This document shows positions 42,132 through 42,401 of a stretch of 64,000 nt of DNA, piece after piece. Under the pieces are notes generated by a model. That model had not been told where the DNA came from. It was given only the letters and a program-made list of their open reading frames with translations, and did no database searches. Where the stretch lies: contig JAHFKK010000001.1 of NCBI GenBank assembly GCA_023245335.1, forward strand, positions 683,282-747,281. The letters run 5' to 3'. Position 1 is the first letter of the stretch; the number at the start of each line of letters is the position of its first letter. Made by a program: the position numbers and the translations under genes. This DNA is from Candidatus Gottesmanbacteria bacterium (GTDB taxonomy: Bacteria > Patescibacteriota > Microgenomatia > UBA10105 > UBA927).

Positions 42132-42160
42132 TTGTCTAATTATTGCCGATTTGTTATACT
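42132..42160 (+). promoter_or_regulatory. Sigma70 promoter of the ileS leader
   Basis: TTGTCT-N17-TATACT with extended TG. Confidence 0.7.
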
Positions 42161-42200
42161 TCCATAAGAATTGCATTTAACCCCGGCAATCACCGGGAAA

Positions 42201-42228
42201 GCCCCACTACGCTAAAGCTACGAGGGGC
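42201..42228. repeat. Small palindromic REP-like element, copy 1
   Basis: GCCCCACTACGCTAAAGCTACGAGGGGC. Confidence 0.7.
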
Positions 42229-42245
42229 AAGCAGAAGGAAGAAAA

Positions 42246-42274
42246 CCCCCACTTCGCATAAAGCTTCGTGGGGC
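42246..42274. repeat. Small palindromic REP-like element, copy 2
   Basis: CCCCCACTTCGCATAAAGCTTCGTGGGGC. Confidence 0.7.
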
Positions 42275-42401
42275 ACAGTAGACCCTTCCGGGAAAGCCCG
42301 TAACAGCCGGAAATAAGAAGCAAGTAAGGTGGTACCACCCCGATTTGATATCGCGGGTCCTTATAAAAACGGTACCTTTTTTTGTGGTGTAAGATAGAGT
42401 T

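Follow-up and report, generated by a model that had tools for sequence, protein, structure and literature searches.

The ileS leader in the 64,000-nt stretch of a Candidatus Gottesmanbacteria genome analysed here (the window) holds two near-identical palindromic hairpins of about 28 nt, and raises the question of how one small element came to sit twice in a structured RNA and what became of that RNA. An initial annotation of the sequence had read them as a REP-like mobile mini-element inserted at tolerant positions of a T-box riboswitch. The hairpins are indeed where it placed them, by sequence inspection at 42201-42228 (copy 1) and 42246/47-42273/74 (copy 2), with 4 changes between them across the 26-27-nt core plus arms, and a pattern scan likewise returned no further copy with complementary arms elsewhere in the 64-kb window. 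Both copies occur with 0 letter differences in contigs from two other groundwater runs of one study and are therefore not an assembly artefact. The explanation that we favour, with moderate confidence, is that a genome-wide REP-like repeat is present twice in this leader, most likely as tolerated passengers at predicted helix-tip and three-way-junction positions; a tolerated passenger is more likely than a functional part.

The RNA that hosts both copies is a compact isoleucine T-box with an AUC specifier upstream of ileS (Table 1). A tRNA-Ile(GAU) with discriminator A, cognate to this specifier, is present in the genome, and the antiterminator bulge has the UGGN-ACC form, with UGGU matching the discriminator A of that tRNA. 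The leader retains specifier, S-turn, Stem IIA/B motif and T-box bulge; one strand of its kink-turn is split. Rfam at gathering scores gave no match in the leader region; RF00230 matched by E-value search only, with 19.5 bits (E 0.023) against a cut-off of 93 and a model that expects a long Stem I. In the predicted terminator, the sequence preceding the U-tract pairs with the T-box bulge and not with the antiterminator 3' strand, at -17.3 kcal/mol; the antiterminator reaches -10.9 and a canonical terminator -3.3 kcal/mol. Such bulge pairing, with compensating changes, is predicted in 9 of the 91 leaders scored (the others being L174, L202, L212, L229, L234, L240, L241 and L243). Two other compact T-boxes of the same genome, L435 with a Val specifier (GUC) and L436 with a Pro specifier (CCG), near 175104 and 996591 of contig G000:C12, are free of the repeat. 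The IleRS encoded here is 33-39% identical to same-genus enzymes and 55-75% identical to enzymes of other genera and families in a comparison across loci L001-L030; there are probably two IleRS types and a gene replacement, during which the leader stayed family-typical.

Table 1. Features of the ileS leader, in window positions, with the basis of each assignment or a remark
Feature	Position	Strand	Basis or remark
Candidate sigma-70-like promoter (TTGTCT, 17 nt, TG-TATACT)	42132..42160	+	consensus match only
Kink-turn, bulged strand	42172..42181	+	C-helix 5' strand TGC 42172-74; 4-nt loop ATTT 42175-78
Kink-turn 1b/2b = A,A	42179-80	+	commonly G,A in the family
Ultrashort Stem I, 5 bp, loop CAAUCA	42182..42197	+	specifier AUC (Ile), 42189-42191
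Kink-turn, non-bulged strand, 3n/2n/1n = A,A,A	42198..42200	+	leader comparison
Repeat copy 1	42201..42228	+	sequence, genome scan, predicted fold, slot comparison
Connector AA of 2 nt, supplied by the repeat's CARG tail; C-helix 3' strand GCA	42229..42233	+	predicted fold
Stem II, lower helix GAAGG/CCTTC	42234..42288	+	S-turn strands AAGAA 42239-43 and AGTA 42277-80
Repeat copy 2, apex of Stem II	42247..42273	+	sequence, genome scan, relatives, predicted fold
Stem IIA/B motif	42289..42307	+	common to actinobacterial ileS and other T-boxes
Minimal Stem III region	42308..42325	+	empty here; slot for the same repeat in relatives
Antiterminator, A1 AAGG/CCTT, A2 with variable apex	42326..42362	+	T-box bulge UGGUACC 42330-36
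GGTACC and T7 tract, predicted terminator 3' arm pairing with the T-box bulge	42371..42383	+	folding energies, compensatory variants
ileS, isoleucine-tRNA ligase, 996 aa	42402..45392	+	TIGR00392, 646.8 bits, cut-off 621.4 (equivalog)

The hairpins belong to a dispersed family. Its units of 26-33 nt consist of a core YWCGC-N4/5-GCTWCG, variable arms and a one-sided CARG tail. The genome-wide pattern search suggested by the initial annotation revealed further copies: the 1.55-Mb genome has 10 copies in which the core is perfect and the arms comprise at least 5 pairs, versus 0, 0, 0, 1 and 0 in five order-3 Markov shuffles. When one mismatch was allowed, a structure-aware scan returned 24 matches versus 2-13 in shuffles, and about 18 copies in the genome are credible by inspection. 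Across 81 family genomes the core pattern had 479 matches, versus 203 for the reversed control. Of 301 phylum genomes, 117 matched a tighter pattern; copy numbers ranged from 0 to 39 per genome, and the control gave 2 matches (table read by eye). Genomes reached via named T-box loci carry the repeat in 6 of 37 cases, three of them with at least 6 copies, and the metagenome set holds at least 123 copies from at least 121 loci among the matches listed. These genome-wide, family, phylum and metagenome counts support a dispersed REP-like family. The motif thus occurs well beyond this leader and, as shown below, orthologous leaders without the hairpins exist; the initial annotation had named the opposite pair of observations as grounds for abandoning its proposal.

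Listed metagenome copies follow a fixed order of core, second arm and one-sided CARG tail, the consensus base being found at the four tail positions in 85 (C), 68 (A), 79 (A) and 60 (G) of the 123 copies. Read on the minus strand, the layout is a CYTG tag, an arm, a GWA/GWA mismatch and a GC-flanked TY loop. Copies in this genome are singletons; nested and close copies occur in other genomes and among the listed metagenome copies, several of which adjoin tRNA or tmRNA ends. At the metagenome loci L309, L314, L337, L358 and L362, the repeat lies directly at tRNA/tmRNA 3' ends in antisense, opposite to its orientation in T-boxes, and at L437 (G000:C12:798062-798400) a copy comes after a degenerate duplicate of a tRNA-Glu 3' end. 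A fixed target site was rejected, since base frequencies upstream of the copies are nearly uniform even though several nested copies are preceded by GCTW, and a replication-strand bias was unconvincing, with about 11 leading versus 7 lagging copies read by eye. At least two more palindromic repeat families are present in G000:C12, a CCCGAT-type with 25 strand matches versus 2 in the control and a CCGCC-type with 30 versus 8; the antiterminator apex of the ileS leader (42339-42357) resembles the former. Another candidate, the 'Family B' hairpin, was discarded as a repeat of this genome (22 matches versus 21 in the control).

The design is close to that of the GTAG/CGTC REPs, which are short imperfect palindromes with variable complementary arms and a terminal tetranucleotide tag (PMC3733652, Di Nocera et al. 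2013). Shared features are an imperfect, multi-copy and mostly extragenic stem-loop with some copies in frame and patchy copy number, non-complementary trinucleotides between the stem and a GC-flanked inner loop (TY on the minus strand), variable complementary arms and an unpaired tetranucleotide at one end. The tag, however, is neither GTAG nor CGTC but reads CYTG on the minus strand, corresponding to CARG on the plus strand, and no RAYT flanked by the repeat was found. Head-to-head dimers or clusters predominate among REPs; copies in this genome are mostly single. The Acido-Lenti-1 RNA motif (RF01687) was rejected, with a best score of 10.9 bits versus 37, away from these copies. Six copies in this genome are read in frame within genes, named from their translations as dnaG, rpsA, infB, fmt, Xer-like and adenosyltransferase-like. 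A lineage-specific in-frame insertion was shown by orthologue comparison for dnaG alone of the six: the segment has 510 nt here versus 489 nt in 16 of 16 same-genus matches, and the insert is absent from the 13 of these 16 that the pattern parsed. The net gain of 21 nt is less than the length of the element, so some bases must have been replaced. In-frame, lineage-specific insertion into unrelated housekeeping proteins likens the family, by description, to the Rickettsia palindromic elements, although those measure 100-150 bp versus about 26-33 nt here (PMC10969869, PMC1779305). Empty orthologous sites were thus found both in dnaG and in the leader.

For the mobility implied by the term 'REP-like mobile mini-element', no transposase was found that could be tied to this dispersed, REP-like family. 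The search for a RAYT/TnpA(Y1) gene that the initial annotation had suggested yielded no RAYT flanked by the repeat, and a dedicated Y1/RAYT mobiliser was rejected because the sole Y1 gene of the genome, which scores below the RAYT cut-off, has unrelated flanking palindromes. Among the 139 ORFs flanking listed metagenome copies, 0 encode Y1 and 2 encode GIY-YIG proteins. A GIY-YIG mobiliser was likewise dismissed, with a full copy at 0 of 30 family GIY-YIG loci beside those 2 of 139 flanking ORFs; this genome has 7 small GIY-YIG genes, one of them preceded by a distorted copy-like hairpin. Many small stand-alone GIY-YIG genes (at most 15 matches per genome) adjoin tRNA genes at L151-L158 and L249-L278, and GIY-YIG loci often contain partial tRNA duplicates and assorted hairpins. 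Carriage by phages was rejected, the 10 viral-contig matches being mostly without complementary arms. No publication was found on the repeat's six 13-nt core motifs, on a REP-GIY-YIG association or on T-box riboswitches of Patescibacteria or candidate phyla in a search of open-access article text; the repeat family may be described in figures, subscription journals or supplements.

A pattern search for the Stem IIA/B motif found leaders in 58 of 81 family genomes with 0 control matches, and 101 distinct leader windows were collected (98 from the family, 3 from a neighbouring family). Sequence records named as Patescibacteria have this compact leader too. Most share a kink-turn, ultrashort Stem I, T-box bulge and U-tract, and the triplet in the Stem I loop tracks the downstream gene: AUC with ileS, GUC with valS, GAC with aspS, UCC with serS, and CCG before a tRNA-binding-protein/proS unit (genes other than ileS were named by BLAST to this genome's ORFs plus reading by eye). 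As in the actinobacterial ileS T-boxes (PMC7583486), an ultrashort Stem I with apical AUC is combined with kink-turn, S-turn, IIA/B motif and T-box bulge, but the leaders here end in U-tract terminator-like hairpins and the family uses Ile, Val, Asp, Ser and Pro specifiers. In the set of 37 AUC leaders (the family set contributes 34 and the neighbouring family L005, L018 and L029; the hand-added L004 is also among the 37), the repeat occupies the kink-turn in 3, the Stem II apex in 5, the Stem III region in 3 and the antiterminator apex in 1, and only the present leader (1/37) carries it in both 5' slots. The kink-turn slot is filled in 15 of these leaders (3 with this repeat), has no hairpin in 21 and was unparsed in 1; slot and connector counts are as the scripts gave them, with parse errors seen by eye at L168 (slots) and at L021 and L190 (connector). 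Stem II is nearly without an apex in L190 and L234, and the sister genomes G010 and G017 have two copies versus none in the leader. The repeat family, its empty and filled alleles and its four T-box slots (kink-turn strand, Stem II apex, Stem III, antiterminator apex) are therefore directly observed.

Other occupants of these slots are a second hairpin type, CGTC-type hairpins (L030 and L202, by eye) and heptamer arrays, and the leaders closest at Stem I (L019 and L190) hold a different hairpin in the kink-turn slot. This slot is also filled in Pro leaders and, by eye, outside the family in L456, L460 and L462. L030 combines the repeat in the non-bulged strand with another hairpin in the bulged-strand loop of the kink-turn, and the kink-turns of L226 and L026 (sister genomes G010 and G017) have apparently lost their tandem G.A pairs altogether, so that a simple bulge remains. 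Long-Stem-I T-boxes with an extra terminator-like hairpin in the Stem III region were also seen (L161, L164, L225, L227, L228, L231, L238, L244-L246), several of them preceding apparent tRNA genes. Extra helices in variable T-box places are likewise known from staphylococcal stem Sa, which is conserved and shown to be functional, whereas the inserts here come from dispersed repeats and vary between sister species (PMC9177973).

The 98 family leader windows (30.9 kb) contain 10 strict copies, two of them from this window, versus an expectation of 0.16, or of 1.4 on the assumption that non-coding DNA makes up 12% and contains every copy; since T-box copies share arm types and are not independent, this enrichment overstates the number of events. 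All relaxed leader copies (15/15) are in sense orientation to the RNA. Of the 9 copies in kink-turns and Stem II, 7 have a CCCAC arm, compared with 3 of the 16 remaining genomic copies, and L226 carries two identical copies. Given these shared arm types and the failure to find a mobilising gene, inheritance and local copying explain part of the pattern. At class level, the leader search matched in 52 of 251 genomes and the repeat was present at 0 of the 30 T-box loci examined outside the family, while an unrelated metagenome T-box (L319) carries it.

In the fold of the whole 5' domain, local pair probability is about 0.98 for both copies and about 0.01 for cross-pairing; misfolding between copies was therefore rejected (about 1%, 3.5 kcal/mol worse). 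Isolated copies fold on themselves with z-scores of -1.7 (copy 1) and -2.9 (copy 2). Predicted fold and leader comparison agree with the initial view of copy 2 as the apex of Stem II. Copy 1 had been assigned to a free Stem I-Stem II linker, with every conserved T-box motif left intact; it instead interrupts the kink-turn at the base of Stem I, splitting the non-bulged strand between AA (GA in the family) and GCA, and positions 1b and 2n are A, not G. The unforced minimum-energy fold of 42167-42310 is a three-way junction closed by TGC/GCA, with a pair probability of only 0.35 for this C-helix.

This arrangement recalls the k-junction, a k-turn whose non-bulged strand carries an additional, third helix, giving a 2HS2HS4 junction (PMC4005666), known from TPP riboswitches, rRNA and DUF-3268; the available portions of PMC4005666 and PMC10573300 make no mention of T-boxes among such cases. 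By position and predicted fold, the two share a third helix opposite a 4-nt loop, a 2-nt connector and both key adenines (2b and 1n), the two that are known to carry the cross-strand bonds (PMC10573300). The guanines of both tandem G.A pairs (1b and 2n) are, in contrast, replaced by A; A.A at 2b-2n is known in k-junctions (PMC4005666), while A at 1b is a departure, and one that is also found in empty leaders. The L1/L1.1-connector pairing of k-junctions is absent as well, and a kinked fold is a prediction here. By script, 10 of the 15 filled leaders have a 2-nt connector. Pairing of the connector with loop position L1 occurs in 5 of the 15, none of them among the 3 leaders that carry this repeat and whose connector is the repeat's own tail; in the present leader the L1 A faces an A.

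These observations bear on whether copy 1 has been domesticated, i.e. whether it is now a working k-junction T-helix that steadies a weakened kink-turn without a protein helper and on which the switch has come to depend. The kink-turn is reported to be essential for tRNA binding by short Stem I-Stem II (PMC7583486), its slot is filled in 15 of 37 leaders as well as in the Pro leaders and the three loci outside the family, and G000 (this genome) and G001, of one clade, both retain a similar copy there. Moreover, a search of this 98% complete genome revealed no gene of the L7Ae family, whose L7Ae protein k-junctions do not need for folding (PMC10573300), and 5 of 15 filled leaders have the L1-connector pairing of true k-junctions. 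Such a dependence nevertheless seems unlikely to us: that pairing is impossible here and lacking in all three repeat-bearing leaders, 1b and 2n are A, 21 of 37 leaders have no helix at this place, and A at 1b occurs without any insert. That the inserts instead disabled a leader which is now decaying, with ileS constitutive or always attenuated, is highly improbable; the four departures of the kink-turn from the family consensus (L1, 1b, 3b, 2n) and the low Rfam score could be read in this way, but specifier, adenines 2b and 1n, S-turn, IIA/B motif, T-box bulge and terminator arm are all retained, and scores well under the cut-off of 93 bits are also obtained for paralogues that carry no insert (48 and 30.7 bits).

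An old insertion with local duplication would account for the pair differently, with an ancestral Stem II copy being inherited and later converted into the kink-turn slot, where it perhaps replaced an older hairpin, and with little or no present mobility. CCCAC arms are common across genera, the L226 twins are identical, copy 1 differs by one change from the copy in Stem II of L002, the locus with the most similar IleRS (75%), the leaders most similar at Stem I hold a different hairpin in the slot, and no strain variation was seen in the two other runs. As the whole explanation we consider this improbable, given that 2 changes separate copy 1 from a copy at a distance of 393 kb, versus 4 from copy 2, and that four slots, three target genes, L319 and the lineage-specific dnaG insertion require several events. 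It is compatible with the passenger explanation and probably part of it; local duplication, which the initial annotation had listed as an alternative, probably contributes, as the shared arm types and the L226 twins indicate.

In the passenger explanation, each copy is predicted to fold on itself, copy 2 extending Stem II past the S-turn and copy 1 forming a third helix on the non-bulged kink-turn strand, with the CARG tail as 2-nt connector in a k-junction layout. The repeat may have spread by single-strand, HUH/RAYT-like cut-and-join in trans or by hairpin-to-hairpin conversion, insertion often replacing a few bases, and no target-site duplication was established. Later movement between slots and paralogous T-boxes might have proceeded by local copying, and the switch would still sense uncharged tRNA-Ile(GAU) and antiterminate ileS.

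The behaviour itself is REP- and RPE-like and thus of an already known kind; what is new is the T-box kink-turn slot with its allelic series. A more far-reaching proposal, to which we give a low probability, is that dispersed selfish hairpins repeatedly turn the essential kink-turn of compact T-boxes into k-junctions, the CARG tail serving as a ready connector, some leaders later gaining loop-connector pairing, and a protein-independent junction joining tRNA sensing without an L7Ae-family helper; repeat DNA would then give rise to new tertiary architecture in RNA, for which nature would provide a series of intermediates. The T-box insertions described here are traceable to dispersed palindromic repeats, with natural empty and filled alleles in four slots, and they help to hide these leaders from Rfam. 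The kink-turn slot provides a natural series from k-turn to k-junction within a motif needed for tRNA binding. With a dispersed repeat found in a T-box, and one copy within its kink-turn, repeat DNA is a likely source of the unexplained extra arms in T-boxes.
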